The translations under genes and the position numbers were made by a program. 64,000 nucleotides of DNA, taken from a bacterium (GTDB lineage Bacteria > Patescibacteriota > Dojkabacteria > GCA-016699595). Shown one piece after another: positions 11,040-61,016 of the stretch. The notes below the pieces were generated by a model. The model was not told the DNA's origin. It did not search any database and worked only from the letters and a program-made list of their open reading frames with translations. The stretch lies in NCBI GenBank assembly GCA_016699595.1, contig CP064982.1, positions 379,829-443,828 on the forward strand. The letters are read 5' to 3'. Every line of letters begins with the position of its first letter. The first letter of the stretch is position 1.

Positions 11040-11058
11040 TTTCTTGACAAATTCTTAT

Positions 11059-11142
11059 GGAGGGGTCGCATAGTTGGTCTAGTGCACAGTCCTGGAAAGA
11101 CTGCGTTCCAAAAGAACCGGAAGTTCGAATCTTCTCCCCTCC
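11059..11142 (+). tRNA. tRNA-Ser (anticodon GGA)
   Basis: Acceptor GGAGGGG/CCCCTCC, anticodon stem CAGTC/GACTG with loop CTGGAAA, long variable arm (GTTC..GAAC), T-loop TTCGAAT. Confidence 0.85.
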
Positions 11143-11268
11143 GAATTGGAAATATCTAGATAAAATAAAAAATTATCAAAAGGACTTTTCACTTTTAGTT
11201 TTCGAATATCTGTAATATGTGTCTATATTTGAGTTGTTTTGATATTTTTGTGGCTCAATAGTTCTTAC

Positions 11269-11348
11269 ACTATACCAAATAATAATAGTGTATAATATTT
11301 GTATAGATGATATAGGGAATTTAGTCGAACTTCGTATGTCCGAGAGTT
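11269..11348. repeat. Copy A (3' part only) of the ~170-bp AT-rich promoter-like repeat (family F1)
   Basis: CCAAATAATAATAGTGTATAATATTTGTATAGATGATATAGGGAATTTAGTCGAACTTCGTATGTCCGAGAGTT closely matches the copies at 19276, 20890, 21500 and 22213. Confidence 0.8.
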
Positions 11349-11396
11349 ATAATCAATTGACAGGCTAGCTAGAAAGATCTTCAAAGAAAGAGTAAT

Positions 11397-11705
11397 ATGA
11401 ATAATACAATGACAAAACAAAAAAATACCTTACTTATGTCTGTTATCTTAGTTTTGTTGATCCTTACAGTAATTGTAGTTGTCGCCAAAATTTCGCCTTA
11501 TAGATGTTGTGCTTGCCATCCAGATAGATATACTTTGTACCCAATTTCCTTTACGCTTTTTGAAAATCATTGGGCTCAATACATAGATTGTCATTGTCTG
11601 CCCGAAATGGGATGTGTTTTGTCTTTTTGGGTAATTCCGATTGATTTAATAGGATTAGTTGCACTTTTATCTGCAATCTTGTTTCACAAATTGAAAAAGA
11701 AGTGA
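11397..11705 (+). CDS. Small Cys-rich membrane protein (hypothetical)
   Basis: ORF with N-terminal TM helix and several Cys (CCACHPDRY, CHC). No known motif. Confidence 0.4.
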   Translation: MNNTMTKQKNTLLMSVILVLLILTVIVVVAKISPYRCCACHPDRYTLYPISFTLFENHWAQYIDCHCLPEMGCVLSFWVIPIDLIGLVALLSAILFHKLKKK

Positions 11706-11714
11706 TGGAAAAGA

Positions 11715-11885
11715 ACGCTCGCCTGTCAACTCTGAACTTTTTATTTGCTTCGCTACAGAACGTTGCACTAAAATTCAGCCCTTCAGGGAATATAACATGT
11801 GATAAAAGACTACAAAACCTTGCAGGATTCTCCATCCAAATTGGGCTATGCCCAACTTCTTTTATCCCTAAACGTTATGTGTAAT
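11715..11885. repeat. GC-richer intergenic element related to the F2/F3/F4 families (degenerate)
   Basis: Shares CGCTTCGCT, ACGTTGCACT and a terminal AACGTTATG (GTTATGT core at 11874-11880) with the other elements. Confidence 0.4.
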
Positions 11886-11922
11886 TGAGATAAAGCTGTT
11901 TTAATAACCACAATTTTCAAAT

Positions 11923-12621
11923 ATGACAATAAATGATGAAGTTCAAAAAATAATCGAAGAAGTAAATCGCCTCAATCACAAGATTGAGATGGTTTCTAAT
12001 GTAAAATCTGGCAAAGAAGCAACAGTCTATAAAGTTCTTTTAGACGATAAACTTGTGGCAATGAAGGTCTATAAAAAACCAGAAGAGAGATCCTTTAAAA
12101 ATACGGGACAATACTTAATGGGAAAATATTACAAGAAACCATCTGAAAGGAAAGCTGTGGCAAAAGGAAATAAATTTGCTAAAAAATTAAAACACCAAAA
12201 TTGGATTAGAAGAGAATATTTTATGCTTGAAAAGTTATATGAACATGGAGCCAAAATTCCAAAACCCATATTACATATTGAAGATGCTATATTTATGGAG
12301 TTATTAGGAAATCAAGATTTTGTGGCTCCTAGATTGTGCGATGTAATTCTGACAAAAGATGAAGCAGAAAGTGCTTATAAAAAGGTACTTGATACAATGA
12401 TTGTGTTTTGGAATTTTGGCATAGTGCATGCGGATTTATCTGAATACAACATTTTATGGTGGAATAATGAACCTTATATTATTGACTTTCCTCAGGCACT
12501 AGATAAAAAGACTAACCCAAATGTAAATGAAGTTTTGGATAGAGATTTGAGAAATATCACAAACTTTTTTGGCAAATTTATCAAAACTGATTTTGATGAA
12601 ATTAGAAAAGACTTTTCTTAA
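11923..12621 (+). CDS. RIO-type serine protein kinase
   Basis: RIO signature motifs: SGKEATVY (ATP-binding loop), IVHADLSEYNIL (catalytic loop), IIDFPQAL (metal-binding loop). Confidence 0.75.
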   Translation: MTINDEVQKIIEEVNRLNHKIEMVSNVKSGKEATVYKVLLDDKLVAMKVYKKPEERSFKNTGQYLMGKYYKKPSERKAVAKGNKFAKKLKHQNWIRREYFMLEKLYEHGAKIPKPILHIEDAIFMELLGNQDFVAPRLCDVILTKDEAESAYKKVLDTMIVFWNFGIVHADLSEYNILWWNNEPYIIDFPQALDKKTNPNVNEVLDRDLRNITNFFGKFIKTDFDEIRKDFS

Positions 12622-12677
12622 CTTGCTCACTATCGGTCGCACCAGATTGTACTCTCTCACTCCCACTGGTCGTTCGG

Positions 12678-12796
12678 GTCTGACAACACAATATATGCGC
12701 TTCGAGCCTTGCAGGCTCACACCCATATTGCGCTACAACTTATAATTTGATAAAATATAGATGTAACACAACATCGCATATACTGGAACGTTAGAT
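12678..12796. repeat. attC-like imperfect palindrome (family F2, long form)
   Basis: GTCTGAC - 7 nt - TATATGCG ... central perfect hairpin GAGCCT-tgc-AGGCTC ... CGCATATA - 7 nt - GTTAGAT (12790-12796). The 8-bp L boxes are perfectly complementary. The next ORF starts 24 bp after the GTT core. Confidence 0.55.
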
Positions 12797-12819
12797 GAAA
12801 TAATACTCAACTATTTTAC

Positions 12820-13218
12820 TTGTTTAATCACGTTAATATGACAAATCAAAGAAACACACTTTCGATAAGAGAAATGATGGAACTCTCAAACGAACTCTTT
12901 GAGCTGAATAAAGAAAAATGGACTCCTAAAACCCCAGAGTCAAATATCTACTGGGTTGGTTGGCTAGTCGCTGAGATCGGAGAAGTTATTGATATCGTTA
13001 AGAAAAAAGGAGTAGATAAAATAATGAATGACAAAGAGATTCGTATTGAAATGCTAGAGGAAATAACAGATTGCTACATGTATTTGGCGGATATTTTAAA
13101 TAGATATCAATATTCTCCAGAAGAGTTTTCGAAAGTGTACAAAGAAAAGATGGAATATAATATGAAAAGAGATTACTCGCAAGGAAAAACAAGTAAGGAT
13201 AAGAAAATCACGAAATAG
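12820..13218 (+). CDS. MazG-like nucleoside triphosphate pyrophosphohydrolase
   Basis: All-alpha NTP-PPase pattern with acidic motifs (VAEIGEV ... EEITDCYMYLADI). Confidence 0.5.
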   Translation: MFNHVNMTNQRNTLSIREMMELSNELFELNKEKWTPKTPESNIYWVGWLVAEIGEVIDIVKKKGVDKIMNDKEIRIEMLEEITDCYMYLADILNRYQYSPEEFSKVYKEKMEYNMKRDYSQGKTSKDKKITK

Positions 13219-13255
13219 TTGAGTATTACTCTCACTCCTAAGGTCGCTCGCCCTC

Positions 13256-13339
13256 GCCTAACAGCGGATATGAGGTTCAGCTCTTACAGAGCCTCAACCC
13301 AAACTGCTACGCAACTTTTCATATCCGCAAACGTTAGCC
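13256..13339. repeat. attC-like site (family F3): GCCTAAC-a-GCGGATATGA ... TCATATCCGC-aaac-GTTAGCC
   Basis: 84 bp. Inverse core GCCTAAC matches RYYYAAC. The 10-bp L boxes are perfectly complementary. CTAAC/GTTAG pair, with asymmetric 1- and 4-nt bulges. The right core GTTAGCC approximates GTTRRRY. Confidence 0.6.
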
Positions 13340-13386
13340 GACATATTTTTGAAAAATTTATATAATCTTATTTAATAATCTAAAAA

Positions 13387-13785: not shown

Positions 13786-13839
13786 TATTATGGATAAATT
13801 TTTCAAAAATACGCAAGGCACGTTGCACTCTCACCCCGC

Positions 13840-13960
13840 TATCGCTCCGTTCGGGTCTGACAACACAATATATGCGCTTCGAGCCTTGCAGTTTCTCACC
13901 CATATTCCGCCGAAGTTTGATAAAATAAACTAAGGTATCGGCGTAACATCGCATATACTA
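13840..13960. repeat. F2-family GC-rich element (copy b; right core degenerate)
   Basis: CCGTTCGGGTCTGACAACACAATATATGCGCTTCGAGCCTTGCAG..CTCACCCATATT is near-identical to 12670-12730. Right arm CGCATATA is present but no GTTAGAT follows. Confidence 0.6.
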
Positions 13961-14088
13961 AAAACAGTATATTATATTTAAAAAATATATAATATATATA
14001 CTCATATTTGCTATATAGTCAAACATTCGCAAAGATGAGAGTTATCGGAAATTTCAAGCAATATTTTTTATACAATTAGCAAAGTTTA

Positions 14089-18649: not shown

Positions 18650-18652
18650 TAT

Positions 18653-18737
18653 GGAGGGGTGACCGAGTGGTTGAAGGTACCGCTCTCGAAAAGCGGCATG
18701 GGGCAACTCATCGCGAGTTCGAATCTCGCCTCCTCCG
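18653..18737 (+). tRNA. tRNA-Ser (anticodon CGA)
   Basis: Acceptor GGAGGGG/CTCCTCC (one G.T), anticodon stem CCGCT/AGCGG with loop CTCGAAA, long variable arm, T-loop TTCGAAT. Confidence 0.85.
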
Positions 18738-18882
18738 TCGAGTTTTACTTTTTTCACAATTGGCTCTTGATATTATGGAAGATAACTGATTTATTGATTT
18801 GACATATTAAACTAAATACAGTACAATTAATGGTAAATTTGTAGTTTATTAATCTATAAAGCAAAAACATTCTTAAAGAAAT

Positions 18883-19218
18883 ATGGGGAAGAGACGTTAT
18901 CCAAAAGATCAGAAAAGTTTTGATAATGTATATTATGAGACATATGGTGATTATCGTGATAATGTCCTTTATCCAAAAGGGGCTTGGTCTTATCAAAAAA
19001 TCTTCCAGACAGCTTGTGTGGTCAAGAGTCAACAAGAACAATATAAAAAAGCTGGACAGCCTGTCAATCTAATGCTTAGAGAATGTTTGTTATTTCAAAT
19101 AATTCAAAAAGGTGGTATTAACGCAATAGACGCATGGTTAAAAAAGAATGATCCAGGACACTATCGACTTCGGGATATTGCAAACATGGATTGGAGTTGG
19201 TTGGATGAGTCAAGGTAA
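18883..19218 (+). CDS. Hypothetical protein
   Basis: ORF only. No motif. Confidence 0.35.
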   Translation: MGKRRYPKDQKSFDNVYYETYGDYRDNVLYPKGAWSYQKIFQTACVVKSQQEQYKKAGQPVNLMLRECLLFQIIQKGGINAIDAWLKKNDPGHYRLRDIANMDWSWLDESR

Positions 19219-19275
19219 TATAAGGTATAATAATATTACAGTTCTTCACGCAAATAATAAAATTAAGCGAACAGG

Positions 19276-19440
19276 GAAAACTTCTCATACAAGCAAAGGT
19301 TTAACTTCCAGTACTTTCAAAAACTTCGTAATTAGTTCTTTATGCATAACTTATATCACTGTTATACTACCCAATAATAGTGTATAATATTAGTATAGAT
19401 AATATACGCAATCTAGTCGGACTTCGTATATCCGAGAGTT
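19276..19440. repeat. Full-length copy B of the ~170-bp AT-rich promoter-like repeat F1
   Basis: AAACTTCTCATA.AAGCAAAGGTTTAACTTCCAGTACTTTCAAAAACTTC ... CCCAATAATAGTGTATAATATT ... TAGTCG.ACTTCGTATATCCGAGAGTT. About 88 % identical to copy E. Contains a TATAAT box. The next ATG is 42 bp downstream. Confidence 0.85.
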
Positions 19441-19482
19441 AGATGAAATCAAAAACAATTATATTTTTAAAAGCAAAAAGTT

Positions 19483-20295
19483 ATGAAAATCGCATTAACA
19501 AATCTGTGTAAATTAGAAGATTTTGCAAAACACAAGACTTATCAAGATGCAATAGGTTTTTTACATGAAGAAAATATTGAGTATCTTGATTTTTGTTCTG
19601 GTGAAAGTGATTTGGATAATTTAGTGGCAAAGTTTAATAAGTCATTGGATTCTGAGGCGGATATAATATGGATTGTTTGTGGAGGATGGTCATGTATTAA
19701 AACGTTAGAAAAAATTGATTGGGGAAAGGTGGTTGCAAGTAATAAAAAGTTTTATGGATTATCAGATTTTACTCACTTTTCCTCTAAGGCAGTTTCCTTG
19801 GGAATTACTTGTTACTATGGGCAAGGACTTGTGTACATTAAACAGTTTTTCCCAACAAATAATAGCCGTGAATTTATCGTAAATTTCTTAAAAACAGGGG
19901 ATGCTGGTTCTAGTATGGCAAAATCATTGTCTTCAAATACGGAAGATTTAGATATAAATAAGGTAAAAATAACAGGTGGACATATGCTCATATTCGCATT
20001 TATGCAAAATCAGATCAATATAAACTTACAAGAAAGATATCTATTTTTGGAATATCATCATGGGGCTAATGGTATAGAGTTAAAAGAGCTTGAATATTAT
20101 CTAGATCAAGTACTTTATGTAATAAAAAACAATTTACCGAAAGGATTTATTTTAGGAAGAAGTTTACTAAAAAATTTTGATGGAACAGAAATAAAAATAG
20201 AAGAAATAAATGAGTTTCTTGTTTCTAAATTAGAAAAGCTTAACTTACCAATCTATTATGTTGATCATTTTAATAACATTATAACTTTTTGCTAA
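19483..20295 (+). CDS. Possible LD-carboxypeptidase (peptidase S66 family)
   Basis: GLSDFTHF resembles the S66 nucleophile motif (GxSDxT). Weak overall. Confidence 0.35.
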   Translation: MKIALTNLCKLEDFAKHKTYQDAIGFLHEENIEYLDFCSGESDLDNLVAKFNKSLDSEADIIWIVCGGWSCIKTLEKIDWGKVVASNKKFYGLSDFTHFSSKAVSLGITCYYGQGLVYIKQFFPTNNSREFIVNFLKTGDAGSSMAKSLSSNTEDLDINKVKITGGHMLIFAFMQNQININLQERYLFLEYHHGANGIELKELEYYLDQVLYVIKNNLPKGFILGRSLLKNFDGTEIKIEEINEFLVSKLEKLNLPIYYVDHFNNIITFC

Positions 20296-20358
20296 ATATG
20301 GAAAATGTTTTTGACTCTCGCTCCTAAGGTCGCTCGCCCTAACGGGTCATCTAACAGT

Positions 20359-20454
20359 TGATATCTGTTCGCTTCGCACATCCAGACCGATGAGTTAAAT
20401 TTTAATTGAATGGTCGGGACGTCAGATATCAGCGAACGTTATGCGAATAAGGCT
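20359..20454. repeat. attC-like site (family F3, copy b): ATCTAAC-ag-TTGATATCTG ... CAGATATCA-gcgaac-GTTATGC
   Basis: Same architecture as 13256-13339 with different L-box sequence. The 9-bp boxes are perfectly complementary. The preceding CTCGCTCCTAAGGTCGCTCGCCCT is shared with 13231-13255. Confidence 0.55.
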
Positions 20455-20889: not shown

Positions 20890-21050
20890 GAAAAACTTCT
20901 CATATAAGCAAAGGTTTAACTTCCAGTACTTTCAAAAACTTCACAACTAGTGCTTCATACATAGTTTAGATACATTTGTATACTAACTAATGATAGTGTA
21001 TACTATTTGCATGGGATATTTTACAAAATTTAATTGAACTTCGTACATCC
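20890..21050. repeat. Copy C of AT-rich repeat F1 (variant middle module)
   Basis: Shares the 5' AAACTTCTCATATAAGCAAAGGTTTAACTTCCAGTACTTTCAAAAACTTC and 3' GAACTTCGTACATCC modules. The middle ACAACTAGTGCTTCATACATAGTTTAGATACATTTGTATACTAACTAAT is shared only with copy D. Confidence 0.8.
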
Positions 21051-21101
21051 TTAAATGCTAGACGAAATTTTCTTAACTTAATTACTACTACAATCAAAGT
21101 T

Positions 21102-21422: not shown

Positions 21423-21498
21423 AAGTCGGAGTCAATATTGTCTAACATAGCATATCTGACTTTGCTAATGCTTCTTCATACTCAAGATGATGCCGAAA

Positions 21499-21632
21499 CG
21501 TGTGACTTCCAGTACTTTCAAAAACTTCACAACTAGTGCTTCATACATAATTTAGATACATTTGTATACTAACTAATAATAGTGTATAATGTTTGCATAG
21601 ATAATATACGAAATCTAGTCGAACTTAGTATC
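21499..21632. repeat. Copy D of AT-rich repeat F1 (5'-truncated)
   Basis: Begins at ACTTCCAGTACTTTCAAAAACTTCACAACTAGTGCTTCATACATAATTTAGATACATTTGTATACTAAC ... AGTGTATAATGTTTGCATAGATAATATACGAAATCTAGTCGAACTT. Confidence 0.8.
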
Positions 21633-21650
21633 AACTAGTGTTTTTTATTT

Positions 21651-22100
21651 ATGCACATTAACCTTACTTGGTTCCACTTAAAGAAAGTTTGGAAATTAAC
21701 AATTCCGTTACAAACACTCCTAATTATATTTCTGTTTGTATTCAGATCGGTACAAGCATTCAACATTCAAACAGGATTAGTAAGTGAGCTTCCAAAATTT
21801 GTAACAATTTTCGCACCAATTTATGAAGAAGTTATTTTTCGTGGTCTATGCCTTGCAATGTTTCTTAAATATTTCAATCGTAACAAAGCAATTATTCTGT
21901 CATCACTAATTTTCGGTTTGTGGCATTTGAAAAATTCCACCCATCTTAGTAACTTCGCGTTGTTATATCAAGTCAGTTATGCGATGTTTTTAATAGGTCC
22001 AATATTGGCTTATATCACCATAAAAACAAAAACTATTTGGCCTGGGATCATTCTTCACTATGTAAATAACATTATCTCCTCACTTATCCCTATTATCTAA
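21651..22100 (+). CDS. CPBP-family (CAAX/Abi) intramembrane metalloprotease
   Basis: EEVIFRG (EExxxR), FGLWH and HYVNN motifs in consecutive TM helices. Confidence 0.75.
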   Translation: MHINLTWFHLKKVWKLTIPLQTLLIIFLFVFRSVQAFNIQTGLVSELPKFVTIFAPIYEEVIFRGLCLAMFLKYFNRNKAIILSSLIFGLWHLKNSTHLSNFALLYQVSYAMFLIGPILAYITIKTKTIWPGIILHYVNNIISSLIPII

Positions 22101-22123: not shown

Positions 22124-22192
22124 CGTTTCGTTGCTGCTTCGCTTTCACTCCGTTCGGGTCGGACAATACAATAAATACTGGAACGTTATATG
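22124..22192. repeat. F2-family element, short form (hairpin core absent)
   Basis: CCGTTCGGGTCGGACAATACAATA|AATACTGGAACGTTATATG corresponds to the two ends of 12670-12796 with the central ~95 bp missing. Confidence 0.6.
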
Positions 22193-22212
22193 ATAAAATA
22201 ACAAGGAAATGA

Positions 22213-22379
22213 GCGAAACTTCTCATATAAGCAAAGGTTTAACTTTCAGTACTTTCAAAAACTTCGTAATTAATTCTTTATACATAACTTACATACACTG
22301 TTATACTACCCAATAATAGTGTATAATATTTGCATGGATAATATACGAAGTTTAGTCGAACTTCGCATATCTGATAGTT
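22213..22379. repeat. Full-length copy E of AT-rich repeat F1
   Basis: See copy B. The next ATG is 56 bp downstream. Confidence 0.85.
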
Positions 22380-22435
22380 GGCTGGAATAGTATGAACCTG
22401 CCCCTGAAATAATAGAAACATTTAAAAATAACACC

Positions 22436-32683: not shown

Positions 32684-33427
32684 TTAATCTGTCATTTTTA
32701 AAGCGTTTATATCAGATTCCCAAGCATCATGGTTTGGGTTCCACCATTCCAAACCCTTAAATTGCAATTTATAATTATCTTTTTTCGAGCTATAACTCCC
32801 CAAATAAAAGTACTTTCTTTTTGTTTGATGTGCCAACTTTATGGAACTTGTCATCATAAACATTCCAAAAGATGTATTTACTAACCCTTGCTCATAGAAA
32901 GGGTATGCATAGTGTAATATTTCCGTGTTTTCAAAACATAGACACATTCCAGCAATTTTATTGGCATTTGTAAACAGAATAAGTGAATTCATATTTAATT
33001 GCCCTTGAAATAACTTTTTTATAACCTGAACTGAGAATAAATTCTCTCCAAACTTTGTCAAATAGAAATCTTTCATCCATTTTCCGAGACTATAATCATA
33101 GCTTTGGTAAGGTAATTTTATTAGATTCATTTCCGTATCAGGAAACTTTGCCAAAATTCTTCGATTTTCAGAAGTGAAAGTAAACTTAGATAAATCAATT
33201 CGTAAAAGTTTCGTAGATTGCATCAGACCATGAGCTTTTCTAGTATATTTGAAGCCTTTGTCATACATATCTGTTGCATCATGCTGATAAGTAACAACTA
33301 TCTCTTTGTAAAATTTATAATCAAACATACAAAAATTATAATACTTTTGTAATAACTTTTTCAAAATAACAGTAATTTGTAATAAAAAAAGCAATTTATC
33401 CAACACTTCCTTCCATACTAAGTTCAA
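32684..33427 (-). CDS. Aminoacyl-tRNA--protein transferase-like protein (ATE1/Bpt family C-terminal domain)
   Basis: C-terminal [26 protein letters not shown] fits the ATE_C YyYLGY...KM.YK...P.E motif. The track start overlaps the sufB end by 32 nt, so the true start is probably the internal ATG at 33328. Confidence 0.45.
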
Positions 33428-34817
33428 TTAACCTATTTAGTTCAACAGCGTATTCCATAGGGAGAGTTTTTGTAATTGGTTCAAGAAATCCTGCAACTAT
33501 CAGATTTTGCGCATCTTTTTCAGATAATCCTCGTGACATCAGGTAATAAATCTGACTTTCGTTTACCTTTCCAGTTGTTGCTTCATGAGCAATAGTTGCA
33601 GTATCATTATCGATTTTCATACTTGGATAAGTATCAGTTTCTGAAATATTGTCAAGTATAAGTGCGTCACAATTTACTTTAACTTTAGCATTTTCTGCAT
33701 TTTTATTTATTCTAACAAGTCCTCGGTAGCTTGTTTTACCTCCAAGCAAACAAACTGATTTTGAATTTATGATTGAGCTAGTATTTCGAGCAGCATGAAT
33801 CATCTTTGCACCATTATCTAAAATCTGTCTATTTATTATATTATTATTTTTTATTTCACCTCTTGCAATTGCCAAACTCAAAACCTCACCATGAGCCTTT
33901 TCTCCAAGGAGTACACAACTTGGATATTTCATCGTAACTTTACTACCTAGATTTCCATCTATCCATTCCATCTTCGCATTCTCGTAAACAAAAGCCCTTT
34001 TTGTTACTAGATTATATACATTTTTACTTCAATTTTGGATTGTAGTATATCGAACTTTACTATTTGGTAGACAAATTATTTCTACTACAGCTGCGTGCAA
34101 AGAATCTGAACTATAAACTGGTGCACTGCATCCCTCTATATAATGCAATTCCGAACCTTCATCAGCAATTATCAAAGTTCTTTCAAATTGTCCCATATTC
34201 TTTGCATTAATTCTGAAATATGCTTGAAGTGGCAATTCAACTTTAACGCCTTTTGGTATATAGATGAAACTTCCTCCTGACCAAACTGCACTATTCAAAC
34301 TTGCGAATTTATTATCTGAGTAAGGAATTACAGTTCCAAAATACTTTTTGAACAATTCTTCATGTTCTCTCAACCCTGAATCAGTGTCTAAAAAAACAAC
34401 ACCAATATCTTTCAGTTTTTTCATTAAACTTCCATAAATAACCTCAGATTCATACTGAGCTTTGACTCCGGCTAGCATTTCTCTTTCAACTTGAGGAATT
34501 TTCAACTTTTCGTAAGTTTCTTTTATTTCATCTGGAAGTAAATCCCAATTGCCAACCTGTGCATCAGTTGGCTTGATATAGTAATAAATATCTTCAAAAT
34601 CAATTGCAGATAGATCAGCACCCCAGCTTGGAATTTGGCGAGCTGTGAAATGTTCAAAAGCTTTCAATCTATATTCAAGCATCCAAGATGGTTCTTGTTT
34701 CATTCCAGAAATCTTTCTAACTATATCTTCAGACAAACCTTTTTCAGGTTTATAGACATAATTTTCAGGCATAGAAAAGCCTTCTTTATATTCTGTTTGG
34801 AAATTTAAGTCTTGCAA
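33396..34817 (-). CDS. sufB: Fe-S cluster assembly protein SufB, interrupted by an in-frame TGA at 34029-34031 (minus strand)
   Basis: ORFs 34029..34817 (SufB N-terminal 262 aa) and 33396..33971 (SufB C-terminal 191 aa, ending ...[22 protein letters not shown]) are in the same frame. Only a TGA stop separates them and there are no other stops. The joined length of 474 codons fits full-length SufB. Confidence 0.85.
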
Positions 34818-35886: not shown

Positions 35887-36798
35887 TTACATTTCTTTCA
35901 AGACATCTCTAAGTATGGCTGCTTTTTCAAAATACATTTGATCAGCAAAAAGCTCCATCTGCAACTTCAATTCGGTTTTCAAAAGCCTCTTTTCCTTGTT
36001 ATTCATAACCTTGTACTTAGCTATAATTTCATTCGGATCGATGTTCATCACTTTTGCTTCAATGTCTACAGGATTTTCCGATCGAGTCAAAATCGCAGTG
36101 GAATTTATTTCCTTCATAACTGACTTTGGAACAATATGATGCTGAATATTGTAATTCTCTTGAATTTCTCTTCTTCTATAAGTTTCATTAATCGCAAAGA
36201 TCATCGAATCTGTCAAATGATCTGCATACATCAAAACTTTGCCCGACTCATGTCTTGCAGCACGACCTATAGTTTGAATCAGACTTGTTTTTGACCTAAG
36301 GAACCCTTCCTTGTCTGCATCCAAAATTGCAACTAATGAAACTTCAGGTACATCCAGCCCTTCTCTGAGCAAATTTATCCCAACAACCACATCATATACT
36401 CCCAACCTAAGATCTCGTAAAATTTCAACTCTCTCTATTGCATCTAGATCAGAATGGAGATACTGAACCTTGATATTCTTCTCCTTCAAATATTCTGTCA
36501 ATTCTTCTGACATTCTTTTGGTCAAAGTAGTTACAAACACCCTTTGTTTCTTTTCTACAACTAAAGTAATTTCAGATATTAAGTCAATGATTTGTGAAAA
36601 CAAGTCTCTTTGAGGTTTAATAATTCTATGTTTTACATTTTCTATCAAAGTAGAATTTTCTATTTCAAATCTCAAAGTGGAAAAGTTTTGAGAATCAATT
36701 GGCCTAATCTCAATCTCGGGATCAAGAAGACCGGTAGGTCGAATTATCTGTTCAACTATTCCTTCATAATTTTTATCTAAATGATTTTTTTTATCCAT
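35887..36798 (-). pseudogene. uvrB: uvrB 3' fragment (C-terminal half of excinuclease ABC subunit B only)
   Basis: Protein aligns to UvrB from about residue 395 onward ([12 protein letters not shown] ... [18 protein letters not shown] ... [30 protein letters not shown] ... C-terminal UVR motif [11 protein letters not shown]). The N-terminal ~390 aa (ATP-binding, beta-hairpin) are absent. Only 117 bp separate it from the next, unrelated gene. Confidence 0.7.
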
Positions 36799-55594: not shown

Positions 55595-57340
55595 TTAGCA
55601 GGAACCTTTCACGTTTGAATTAATAATTCCTTGCTTTACAATTTTCAAACTAAGTTTTAAGTTTCCATTCCAAGTATCAATATCTAAATTAAATTTCAGG
55701 TCTATTTTATCACCTTGTTTAAATTTTGAATAATTACTATTTGCAAGATTGAATCCAATTGCAGAAAACTTATCAAAATATAGTTTCAAATGTTTACCAG
55801 AAATTGTTTCAATACTGTTAATCTTCAAATTTTTACAACTGAACTTCGGCTTTGAATTTCCCATTCCAAATGGTTCAAACAATTCCAATTCTTTTGCAAA
55901 TTCAAGAGTAATTTCATCTGCTTCAAGTTCTAGATCTATATTTTCTGGTTTAATTATAAGTTCATCACTTAGTTTTTCATTTACAAGTTTCAAAATTGCA
56001 TTTTGAAACTCATCTAGTTTATCATTTTCAATAGAAAGTCCCGCAGCTTGAGCATGACCTCCATAGCGAGTTAAAAAGGAACTAACTTCATTCAAAGTCT
56101 CAGTAATATTTAGGTGCTTCGTTGATCTACAACTTCCAACTGAGTCCAACTCTGACTTCGATAAAACTATAGTTGGTCTGAAATATTCCTCACAAAGTTT
56201 TCCCGCAACCAAACCTATAATTCCTTCTTCCCAATCTTCCCCAATTATAATCAAAATCTTATTATTATTTTTAACTTGAGGAGTTACTTGAGCTTTTGCT
56301 TCTTGAAGTCTAGTTTCAGTTATTTGCTGACGAGTTGAATTCAATGAGTTTAGATCAATTGCGATTTGTTTAGCAACTTTTAGGTCTAGCGTGGTGAAAA
56401 GTCTAACTGCATCAATTGCTGCAGTCAATCTTCCAGCAGCATTTATCCTTGGACCTAACTTGAAACCTAAATCATATGAACTAATGCTCTTCGTTTCAAC
56501 TCCAGAAACTTTGCAAAGCTCAAACAAACCTAAAAGCCCGCCTTGATAAGGAGGGATGCCGTAGGCAGGGAGGTTTAAAACATTCATATTTCTAATCTCC
56601 TCTAATCCAAATTTAACAATTTTTCTATTTTCATCAATCAATGGCATTATGTCGCAATTTGTCGCAAGCGCAACAAGTGGAAGATACTTTTGCCCGCCTT
56701 GGTAAGGAGGGACGCCGTAGGCAGGGAGGTTTAATCTTTCACCCATCGCTCTCACTAAGTACCAAACTACAGTAGTTCCAGAAATTTCTTGAAACTCTAG
56801 TTTTGAATCTTTCAATTTTGGATGAACTACAATTGCCTGTTTTGGTAATATTTCAGGAATTGTATGATGATCTGTAATTATAAACTCAAAGTAATCGTGC
56901 CATTTCTCATCAATCAATTTTGCATCTTTGATTCCACAATCCACGCTAATCAAAAGTGGTTTTTGGTTATTATTTAAATCTACATTTTGAACTTTAATTT
57001 TGTAAATATCATAAATATTTGTTAAGGAATTTTCAGAAAGACCATAACCTTCATCAAACCTTGAAGGAATATATGGATAAATCTGTTTGTAATTCAAGTC
57101 ATAATATATGAAATTGAATAGTGTTGAAGTTGCACAAACTCCATCTACATCAAAATCTCCATGTATGAAAATCCAACCTCCGGTTTGTATTTGAGATTGA
57201 ATTTTCTCAACTGCTTTTTCCATATTTGGAATTTTGAAAGGATTTTGGAATTCAAACTTTGGATTTACAAATTCTTCAACTTGAGATTCTGAAATATTTC
57301 GAACTTGAAGTAATTTTTTGAAAGTTGAGGTAAATTGCAT
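55595..57340 (-). CDS. recJ: Single-stranded-DNA-specific exonuclease RecJ (carries two in-frame 14-aa LNLPAYG(V/I)PPYQGG repeats)
   Basis: DHH motifs (HGDFDVDGVCATS, ITDHH) and DHHA1 region (GGHAQAAG). Confidence 0.85.
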   Translation of the reverse strand: MQFTSTFKKLLQVRNISESQVEEFVNPKFEFQNPFKIPNMEKAVEKIQSQIQTGGWIFIHGDFDVDGVCATSTLFNFIYYDLNYKQIYPYIPSRFDEGYGLSENSLTNIYDIYKIKVQNVDLNNNQKPLLISVDCGIKDAKLIDEKWHDYFEFIITDHHTIPEILPKQAIVVHPKLKDSKLEFQEISGTTVVWYLVRAMGERLNLPAYGVPPYQGGQKYLPLVALATNCDIMPLIDENRKIVKFGLEEIRNMNVLNLPAYGIPPYQGGLLGLFELCKVSGVETKSISSYDLGFKLGPRINAAGRLTAAIDAVRLFTTLDLKVAKQIAIDLNSLNSTRQQITETRLQEAKAQVTPQVKNNNKILIIIGEDWEEGIIGLVAGKLCEEYFRPTIVLSKSELDSVGSCRSTKHLNITETLNEVSSFLTRYGGHAQAAGLSIENDKLDEFQNAILKLVNEKLSDELIIKPENIDLELEADEITLEFAKELELFEPFGMGNSKPKFSCKNLKINSIETISGKHLKLYFDKFSAIGFNLANSNYSKFKQGDKIDLKFNLDIDTWNGNLKLSLKIVKQGIINSNVKGSC

Positions 57341-59378: not shown

Positions 59379-61016
59379 TTAATAATCCATATCATCCATG
59401 CCTCCCATACCACCACCTCGTACTGGAGTATCTTCTTTCTTTTCGGGAAGATCGACGACTATTGCCTCTGTTGTGACAGCGACTTCTACAACTGAAATCG
59501 CATTTTGCAAAGCTAGTCTAGTTACTTTGACTGGATCTATGATACCCTCTTCCATCATATTTACATATTTATCAGCTTTTGCATCATAGCCGATTCCATT
59601 ACCTTTTGACATTTTCTCCATAACAACAACTGCGCCATCTTTCCCTGCATTTTCTGCGATTTGTCTTGTTGGCTCTTCCAAAGCTCTATAGAGAATTTCA
59701 GATGCAACTTTCTCATCACCAATCAGTTCTAAAGTCTTCAAAACTTCCCTTGCTTCAAGCAGTGCGACCCCACCTCCAGCAACGATACCTTCAGCAATTG
59801 CAGCAACAACTGCAGATTTTGCATCATCCACAGCATCTTTCATAGCCTTTTGTTCGACTTCAGTAGCTGCTCCAACTTGAAGAACTGCAACTCCACCTGA
59901 TAATTTTGCAAGTCTTTCAAACAATTTTTCTTTATCATAATCTGATTTAGTATTTTCAATTTCCTGCTTGATAAGTTGTATTCTCTCTTCCAAAGCTGAT
60001 TTCTCACCTTGTCCATCAACTATAACTGTTTCATCTTTTTTAGCTATAACTTTCTTAGCTCGACCTAAATCATTTAGTTCAGCATTTTCGAGCTTTTTGC
60101 CAATATCCGGAGTTATCACTTGCCCTCCAGTAAGTGTCGCGATATCTTGCAACATAGCTTTTCTTCTATCTCCAAACGCAGGAGCCTTCACAGCAACTAC
60201 ATTCAAAATTCCTTTCAATTTGTTTACAATCAATGTAGCCAATGCTTCGCCATCTATATCTTCAGCGATTATTACTATATTTTTACTACCAGCTTGAACT
60301 ATTTTCTCCATTACCGGTAATAATTCTTTGATATTACTAATTTTTTGATCAGTAATAATGATATATGCATCTTCTGCAACAGCTTCCATTTTGTCAGTAT
60401 TTGTCATGAAGTATGGTGAGATATAGCCTTTGTCAAACACCATACCATCTACATATTTAGTAGTAATTCCAAATGTATTGCCATCTTCTACTGTCAAAAC
60501 TCCATCTTTGCCAATCTTGTCAAATATCTCGGCCAATGCATCAGCAATTGCTGTATCTCCGTTTGAAGAAATCAAAGCGACTCTTCTGATATCTTCCTTT
60601 CCTTCAATTTTTGTACTCATATTGTTCAATTCATCCACCAATACATTTACAGCTTTATGCAATCCATTTCGAATTGCGATTGGATTTGCACCAGCTTCTA
60701 CAACTCTAAGACCTTCAGTTAAAATTGATTGAGCCAAAACTGTTGCAGTAGTTGTACCATCTCCAACATTATCTACAGTCTTGGTAGCAACTTCTTTGAT
60801 AAGCTGCGCTCCAGCATTCATTGCTTTGTCTTCAAGTTCGATTTCTTTTGCAATGGTAACACCATCGTTTGTAATATGAGGAGCCCCATAAGATTTGACT
60901 AAAACAACTCCTCGACCTTTTGGTCCGAGAGTCTTTTTGACAGCATTCGCAGCAGCATCAACTCCTGCTTTCAATGCTTTTCTTGCTTGTGTTGAGTATA
61001 TAATTTGTTTTGCCAT
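59379..61016 (-). CDS. groL: Chaperonin GroEL (Hsp60)
   Basis: [25 protein letters not shown]..., GGM-repeat C-terminus ([11 protein letters not shown]). 545 aa. Confidence 0.95.

Follow-up and report, generated by a model that had tools for sequence, protein, structure and literature searches.

What is the imperfect palindrome that follows a small MazG-like gene in this low-GC bacterial DNA, and which enzyme would act on it? The preliminary description of the window (the whole stretch of 64,000 nucleotides analyzed here) had taken positions 13256–13339 for an attC site of the integron type. Our comparative analysis suggests that the element, which we call site C (13227–13347, core 13256–13339), is likely a recombination site of mobile cassettes in an integron-like array of a CPR/Patescibacteria-like bacterium, and we propose a single-stranded DNA mechanism for it. 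Judged from its sequence, site C is predicted to be attC-like in function without being a canonical attC. Of the original identification, we retain the structured site for recombination, placed at a cassette's 3′ end, but not the canonical integron attC. The system is probably an undescribed integron variant, and its array at this locus is decayed.

The window has a GC content of about 32% and a CPR/Patescibacteria-like gene content. The nearest LysRS among species-representative genomes belongs to Candidatus Dojkabacteria, with just 57% identity, and the loci found through LysRS (distant Dojkabacteria or Saccharibacteria, 57% identity) shared neither synteny nor sites with it.

Read letter by letter, site C is laid out exactly as had been described: R″ GCCTAAC (13256–13262), a single A (13263), GCGGATATGA (13264–13273), 45 nt (13274–13318), TCATATCCGC (13319–13328), AAAC (13329–13332) and R′ GTTAGCC (13333–13339). 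Each 10-bp box is the perfect reverse complement of the other, and the CTAAC of R″ pairs with the GTTAG of R′. The whole element exceeds the core first reported, with a 5′ extension from 13227 and an R′ arm reaching to about 13347. Folded as single-stranded DNA, both strands form the anticipated stable hairpin, at −15.5 kcal/mol for the top strand (z −5.1 relative to dinucleotide shuffles) and −20.2 kcal/mol for the bottom strand (z −5.7); for either strand, 0 of 200 shuffles was as stable. A relaxed pattern scan (RYYYAAC ... stem ... GTT) gave 14 matches in the window versus 4–14 in shuffled sequences, with site C as the sole + strand match that had a perfect 10-bp stem. The bare motif is in itself not uncommon and, therefore, the case for site C is built on homology and context. 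This hand-written scanner, which required R″/R′ and a stem of at least 9 bp, failed to tell signal from shuffles and was dropped in favor of covariance models.

Homology was found through a 19-mer, CTCCTAAGGTCGCTCGCCC, located just 5′ of site C, which has two copies in the window and is present in nine low-GC metagenomic contigs. In all nine it is followed by ATCTAAC, 1–2 bases, a box of 10–12 nt and a variable loop and then, on the 3′ side, by the complementary box, 4–6 bases and GTTAnnn. The boxes vary in sequence between loci while their complementarity is kept. A first covariance model (R1), made from 15 hand-picked sites, was used to gather 27 sites from loci outside the window (designated below by L numbers), and a second one (R2) was rebuilt from those 27 non-window sites only. 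On the window, R2 gave seven matches between 11.8 and 22.2 kb, all on the + strand and after small + strand ORFs (Table 1), with no other match below E 0.4 (E-values are rough, the model calibration having been shortened) and none on the − strand. The same model had no matches in the unrelated loci L002–L005. The two further sites reported together with site C, our sites B and E, are both real by their R2 scores, but their description needs correction: the coordinates 20359–20454 were about 10 nt off, ATCTAAC lying at 20349–20355 and GTTATGC at 20438–20444, and at site B, reported as starting at 12678, the model places the AAC of R″ at 12685–12687, outside the GTCTGAC first taken for it.

Table 1. 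Features of the cassette array in the window (R2 E-values are rough).
Feature	Position	Strand	Evidence or remark
tRNA-Ser(GGA)	11058–11144	+	borders recombinase remnant
Recombinase remnant, last ~32 codons (ELLSHKNIKTTQI, stop, THI..SPF)	11169–11264	−	tblastn with IntI1 / L011 protein
Repeat adjoining recombinase remnant (partial copy)	11265–11357	+	promoter-like TGTATAAT box
Site A, after ORF 11397–11705	11783–11888	+	R2 58.3 bits; intact
Site B, after RIO-kinase ORF 11923–12621	12674–12804	+	R2 65.9 bits; intact
Putative cassette with site C	12791–13333	+	TT of preceding core to G of own core
Site C 5′ extension, CT-rich, conserved (ACTCTCACTCCTAAGGTCGCTCGCCCTC)	13227–13255	+	present on a subset of family sites
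Site C core	13256–13339	+	R2 match 13249–13347, 63.2 bits, E 4e-11; folding; intact
Site C arm L″	13264–13275		followed by branched loop
Site C arm L′	13317–13328		followed by spacer AAAC
Site D, close copy of site B, R′ destroyed	13851–13980	+	R2 32.3 bits, E 1.6e-4; degenerate
tRNA-Ser(CGA)	18652–18739		borders second cassette group
Weak degenerate site ending GTTTAAC	19201–19314	+	R2 24.3 bits, E 0.008
Longer repeat copies	19278–19449, 20893–21060, 21479–21651, 22216–22388		
Site E, after LD-carboxypeptidase-like ORF 19483–20295	20342–20452	+	R2 64.2 bits; intact
Site G, relative of site B with loop deleted	22154–22199	+	R2 20.1 bits, E 0.07

In the family defined in this way, the parts follow each other in a fixed order, from R″ (..TAAC) through a single A, a 12-bp L stem, a loop forming a three-way junction, L′ and a spacer of 3–5 nt (AAAC or GAAC) to R′ (GTTAnnnGAAAT). 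Its consensus reads TCGGGTC ..YTAAC A nnnnTATnnGG TT (hairpin) CACCCAAATT (hairpin) in the 5′ half and AACTTC nnATAnnnn AAAC GTTAnnnGAAAT in the 3′ half. Across the 27 sites, AAC/GTT is invariant and the 5′ spacer is always 1 nt (27/27 in both cases), and standard pairs fill 85.6% of cells versus 27–32% when the partners are slid by 1–3 columns. Pairing in the L stem is 90.8%, both sides having changed in 10 of its 12 pairs, and the outer R-stem pairs are weak. These pair counts are somewhat inflated, because the alignment of the 27 sites (A3) had been adjusted to the model. When 13 bottom strands were aligned afresh with MAFFT, RNAalifold independently recovered both stems, R and L, together with two loop hairpins, with compensatory changes in 17 of 28 pairs. 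The central region has no internal loop but a 3-nt bulge (TTN on the bottom strand), and the four pairs adjoining it covary; a single bulged base occurs in L′ at 10 of the 27 sites and in L″ at one. The geometry is conserved while the sequence covaries, as the preliminary description had proposed from three sites, although sequence conservation is far stronger than in attC.

Some sites also carry CT-rich or CGCT-rich structured 5′ extensions of 30–45 nt. Besides that of site C, they were observed at 20313–20348, 12628–12673, 13820–13857 and 11757–11790, and in many related loci; some of them start with an R′-like ACGTTGCAC. The extension of site E, beginning at 20313, is the same as that of site C. 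At other sites, the CGCT-rich motif of these extensions takes up the loop of the second loop hairpin.

In predicted folding, the two strands of these sites are not equivalent. At 29 of 29 sites, the bottom strand is calculated to be the more stable one (mean difference 2.8 kcal/mol), and two pairs are standard on the bottom strand only, in 13 of 13 sequences each: a G.T in a loop hairpin, and a G.T or A-T beside the R box. Counts of G.T versus A.C in the L stem showed no strand bias (3 versus 4), the bias coming from the loop hairpin and the R-box-adjacent pair. Both the predicted stability of the bottom strand and the pairs restricted to it disfavor a function in sense-strand mRNA.

The surroundings of site C are those of a cassette array. 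From 11.1 to 24.1 kb, small + strand ORFs are interspersed with repeated intergenic elements. The ORFs encode a RIO kinase and MazG-like, LD-carboxypeptidase-like, CutA1, Rce1-like and Band-7 proteins, and several are domain-less; they form two groups, each after a tRNA-Ser gene, with LysRS, a radical-SAM gene and a − strand Band-7 gene between the groups. The ORF preceding site C encodes a MazG-like dATP/dGTP pyrophosphohydrolase (12820/12838–13218). The limits of its putative cassette are set by analogy with junctions mapped in related loci (L013 versus L008/L014, see below), with a predicted crossover between G13333 and T13334.

Domain scans found no integrase domain in any large ORF of the window. 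What can be recognized is a recombinase remnant, with tRNA-Ser immediately on one side of it and the first repeat on the other; TAG has replaced the codon of its catalytic Tyr, and no part of the gene N-terminal to the segment is left. The window thus holds four intact and three degenerate sites, with the recombinase present as a remnant only. This stub and the several broken sites indicate a decaying relic, barring a copy of the enzyme elsewhere in the genome, and activity within the window is doubtful as it has no intact recombinase. With at least two sites and no functional integrase, the array resembles a CALIN, if its sites count as attC.

The repeat that adjoins the remnant has a 3′ end (TTCGTATGTCCGAGA GTTATAAT) like the attI sites of related loci. 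Such ORF-less units, of about 140–170 nt, recur five times in the window with 67–94% identity, each just 5′ of a cassette ORF and bounded by GTTTAAC↓TTCC.. and ..GAGA↓GTTAGATGAAAT (arrows mark the unit limits). They contain a promoter-like box, TTATAC-15 nt-TGTATAAT, and their ends resemble the attI of related loci. Our conjecture is that each unit may be a cassette that has an attI/promoter copy in place of an ORF.

An intact version of the missing enzyme is found in related loci. Searching with IntI1 by tblastn (the query scored 799 bits against NF011946 and was 100% identical to plasmid intI1 genes) detected, in addition to the window remnant, 30%-identical genes adjoining arrays in L011 and L013; together with the L011 protein as query, recombinase genes were detected beside the arrays of L011/L017 and L013. 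The array-heading recombinase has ~270 aa with domains PF13495 and PF00589, and has more than 6000 relatives at E ≤ 1e-30 in CPR metagenomes, most of them about 53–55% identical. The genomic contexts of eight such relatives were examined. All nine independent contexts that have an upstream flank carry R2 sites upstream of the recombinase on the opposite strand (L013, L016, L017, L018, L019, L020, L021/22, L024/25 and L026), while downstream flanks of equal length in the same contexts carry none. The surroundings of the recombinase are stable chromosomal ones, and the arrays carry defense and accessory genes as cargo: acetyltransferases, a hydrolase, a KNTase-type nucleotidyltransferase, Fic, DNA methyltransferases, other methyltransferases and a Shedu-type SduA gene.

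This recombinase is not a canonical IntI. Aligned to VchIntIA (2a3v), its residues 11–181 correspond to 5–178 and 203–276 to 243–316, leaving 21 aa where VchIntIA (IntI4) has 64, so that the IntI-specific domain is absent. All eight CPR recombinases share a gap of about 41 residues relative to IntI1 while conserving the R-K-H-R-H-Y catalytic residues. They score 193–233 bits with TIGR02249, under its cutoff of 265, and 215–242 bits with the XerA-type model NF040815, whose cutoff is 220. Among solved structures, the best match is archaeal XerA (E 1e-44), followed by VchIntIA (8e-41) and E. coli XerD (3.5e-24). Genetic code 25 is that of Gracilibacteria or Absconditabacteria. The recombinase gene of L013 (1312–2130, −) is intact only with UGA read as Gly, i.e., under code 25, with five in-frame TGA at Gly positions. 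Another locus, L009 (GC 27.5%), shows four model matches, yet very few ORFs longer than 70 aa under table 11; an alternative genetic code, or a mostly non-coding sequence, may be the reason.

Comparison of related loci delimits the mobile unit. One cassette (a 244-aa ORF and its site) heads the array of L013, next to the recombinase, and lies behind another site in L008/L014. Its homology begins at GTTGGGAGAAAT, the preceding base differing with the context, and stops at ..AAACGTTA, after which the flanks diverge. L019 and L020 have identical recombinases and identical sequence up to ..AAAACCAGTTA, followed by different cassettes, those of L019 encoding Fic and DUF5680, each with its own site. 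The same pattern is found in L026/L027, where recombinases and attI left halves are identical and divergence sets in after GTTA. These junctions, resolved to GTT(A) itself, indicate a mobile unit that, like an integron cassette, has the TT of one core at its start and the G of the following core at its end. The shared cassette is almost identical in L013 (2212–3201) and L008 (1312–2301), despite code 25 in L013, and this sequence comparison hints at cassette sharing within or across genetic-code boundaries.

The sequence of attI (..TTCGTATAGAAACGA GTTAAATGAAAT) is collinear with the 3′ half of the cassette sites (..AACTTCnnATATnnnnAAAC GTTAnnnGAAAT), and both consist of two partly inverted arms around a center of 7–9 nt, the crossover falling at the right arm's edge. 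Written as two arms, attI is a partial inverted repeat, ACTTCnnATAT / TTAnnnGAAAT. In L024 and L026/L027, a second TTCGTATA-type box lies 100–130 nt upstream of the attI core, which recalls the direct-repeat integrase-binding sites of class 1 attI1.

We hypothesize that the bottom strand folds while single-stranded, giving a duplex that would resemble attI, with a left arm ACTTCnnATAT and a right arm TTAnnnGAAAT around a center with the 3-nt bulge. A recombinase dimer would bind this fold and exchange one strand at TAA↓CG of the bottom strand (G↓TT of the top strand), with attI or another site as partner. The distorted center, i.e., four covarying pairs and the 3-nt bulge, would allow the exchange of one strand only, and replication would resolve the product, the same course as in integrons and when XerCD integrates CTX phage. 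Since the 3′ halves by themselves look like a full double-stranded site, a double-stranded reaction is possible as far as chemistry is concerned; however, it would leave the covariation of the L stem unexplained. One point counts against the single-stranded reading, namely that the recombinase lacks I2, as the I2 helix, or additional domain, of IntI is held to be necessary for recombining folded single-stranded attC, and the change in integrons from substrates of double-stranded DNA to folded single strands is attributed to this helix (PMC7790495, PMC4792948).

Integrons, above all sedentary chromosomal integrons and CALINs, are among the nearest known counterparts. In both systems a divergent tyrosine recombinase heads the array, with attI adjoining its gene (in related loci), and unidirectional ORFs are each followed by an imperfect palindrome R″-L″...L′-R′ with AAC/GTT. 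Both have a variable loop, often a branched one, with G↓TT as the crossover point and a bottom strand predicted to fold better than the top one; the cargo of both is accessory (here acetyltransferases, Fic, methyltransferases, a Shedu-type SduA gene and nucleotidyltransferases). The array in the window, for its part, looks like a CALIN or like a decayed integron array with a pseudo-integrase.

The recombinase could alternatively be a housekeeping dimer resolvase, the single Xer of CPR bacteria, with attI as its dif and the cassettes as IMEX-like hitch-hikers that integrate as folded single-stranded DNA. We regard this as possible, though on balance unlikely. In the single-recombinase systems XerS and XerH, the site adjoins the recombinase gene, and attI here is placed as difSL is to XerS and difH to XerH; an 11 / 7–9 / 11 inverted repeat with the crossover at the arm boundary can also be read in attI and in the 3′ halves of the sites. 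The size and even divergence of the recombinase family in CPR, its stable chromosomal contexts, and archaeal XerA proteins as its closest solved relatives are what would be expected of such a resolvase, and the ‘Cand’ subgroup of Xer-related recombinases from candidate phyla has been suggested to replace Xer (Smyshlyaev et al. 2021, PMC8138268). The systems of XerCD and CTX phage share with ours a Xer-type recombinase without an extra domain and, by inference, a folded single strand (attP in CTX phage) that mimics a double-stranded site with a mismatched center, as well as a one-strand exchange finished by replication. On the other hand, CTX phage and other IMEX are phage or plasmid genomes, whereas here promoter-poor single-gene cassettes, each with its own hairpin, form long arrays. 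Arrays of up to ten or more cassettes with their own sites, together with the repeated TTCGTATA-type boxes of attI, look like an integron platform. An essential resolvase would not be expected to be destroyed, as it is in the window, unless a second copy exists, and attI shows no sign so far of a dif role.

‘Cand’ (PMC8138268), NCBIfam NF040815 (‘site-specific tyrosine recombinase/integron integrase’) and the family heading our arrays are the same group; in the literature on ‘Cand’, its members are presumed substitutes of Xer, and cassette arrays or hairpin sites were found nowhere described there. We put forward as an evenly balanced proposition that, in Patescibacteria, the ‘Cand’ Xer-like recombinases are not, or not only, dimer resolvases but serve a widespread integron-like system, in which an enzyme lacking I2 recombines single-gene cassettes by folded single-stranded sites with an asymmetry that mirrors that of attC.

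Ordinary attC sites, with a canonical IntI encoded elsewhere, the window as a CALIN and the neighboring Xer-like genes as incidental, would account for the R″/R′ consensus and palindromic L boxes, for the size range of the sites and their location behind ORFs, and for the G↓TT junctions, the bottom-strand bias and the lack of an integrase in the window. We find this improbable, since the arrays abut an I2-less recombinase in 9 of 9 contexts, cassette polymorphism falls exactly at the attI of that recombinase, and about 300 kb of related loci yielded no canonical IntI. The sites themselves differ as well. In canonical attC, extrahelical bases lie by definition on the R″-L″ arm and direct the choice of strand (PMC2727003). 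The asymmetry of 1 nt versus 4 nt, noticed at the outset as a source of such bases, is conserved across our family, but its unpaired bases are on the L′-R′ arm. Our spacers are 1 versus 3–5 nt, whereas in class 1 attC (about six clean sites from three plasmids) they are 5 versus 5–6 nt, with 2–3 extra bases on the R″-L″ arm. Further differences from attC are a central region that is mostly paired with a 3-nt bulge, strong sequence conservation (TAT in the L box, CACCCAAATT, AACTTC, GTTAnnnGAAAT), the 5′ extension of many sites, CPR bacteria as hosts (one on genetic code 25) and a recombinase without the IntI-specific domain. In the three plasmid arrays (L028–L030), not one class 1 attC site was detected by R2.

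Hairpins acting at the RNA level or as generic repeats (3′ UTR stabilizers, terminators, or REP/MITE-like palindromes of another enzyme) are very improbable even though our sites are intergenic, at gene 3′ ends, repeated and stably folded, because the strand antisense to mRNA folds better in 29 of 29 sites and some pairs would be A.C mismatches in mRNA, sites are strictly linked to a tyrosine recombinase with cassette junctions at GTT, and no HUH/RAYT-type gene was found among the scanned ORFs of the window. The preliminary description had itself raised the possibility of another structured RNA, such as a riboswitch or sRNA family; site C has no Rfam match even at E ≤ 1, no terminator call and no T-run, and the terminator and known-RNA readings were rejected.

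Returning to the preferred reading, that of an integron-like system with an I2-less recombinase, we found no such arrays described in the literature on integrons, attC, cassettes and tyrosine recombinases in CPR groups, although our coverage of it is incomplete and an earlier description is possible. Integron detection tools require the IntI-specific domain and a canonical attC model; if our reading is confirmed, it would suggest that present surveys systematically miss such arrays. The proposition on ‘Cand’ could also explain many of the metagenomic ‘integron-type recombinases without attC’: in a 2026 study, 97% of the contigs with ‘integron-type’ recombinases had no detectable attC, and attC types not yet known were raised as a possibility (PMC13323075). 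If that proposition is true, recombination at hairpin sites either predates the IntI insertion, which would make this system a living relative of the integron ancestor, or arose twice. If the preferred reading is confirmed, the system would be a tractable one for defining the minimal requirements of DNA-hairpin recombination, and would represent a way for ultra-small, host-dependent bacteria to exchange genes, also across a code boundary (UGA = Gly).

Other features of the window were recorded outside the array. GC skew and gene orientation flip from + to − at ~28.6 kb and reverse at ~61.5 kb, with no dnaA nearby. The flip at ~28.6 kb was considered and rejected as a sign of a replication terminus, the skew tracking gene orientation and reverting beside groES/groEL (GroEL 59379–61016). 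UvrB at 35887–36798 (−) is represented by a C-terminal 303-aa ORF only, and SufB/D is split over two ORFs (34029–34817 and 33396–33971, −). Finally, a RecJ-like ORF (55595–57340, −) holds a 43-nt GC-rich direct repeat, with copies at 56536–56578 and 56692–56734 that are 95% identical and 156 nt apart.
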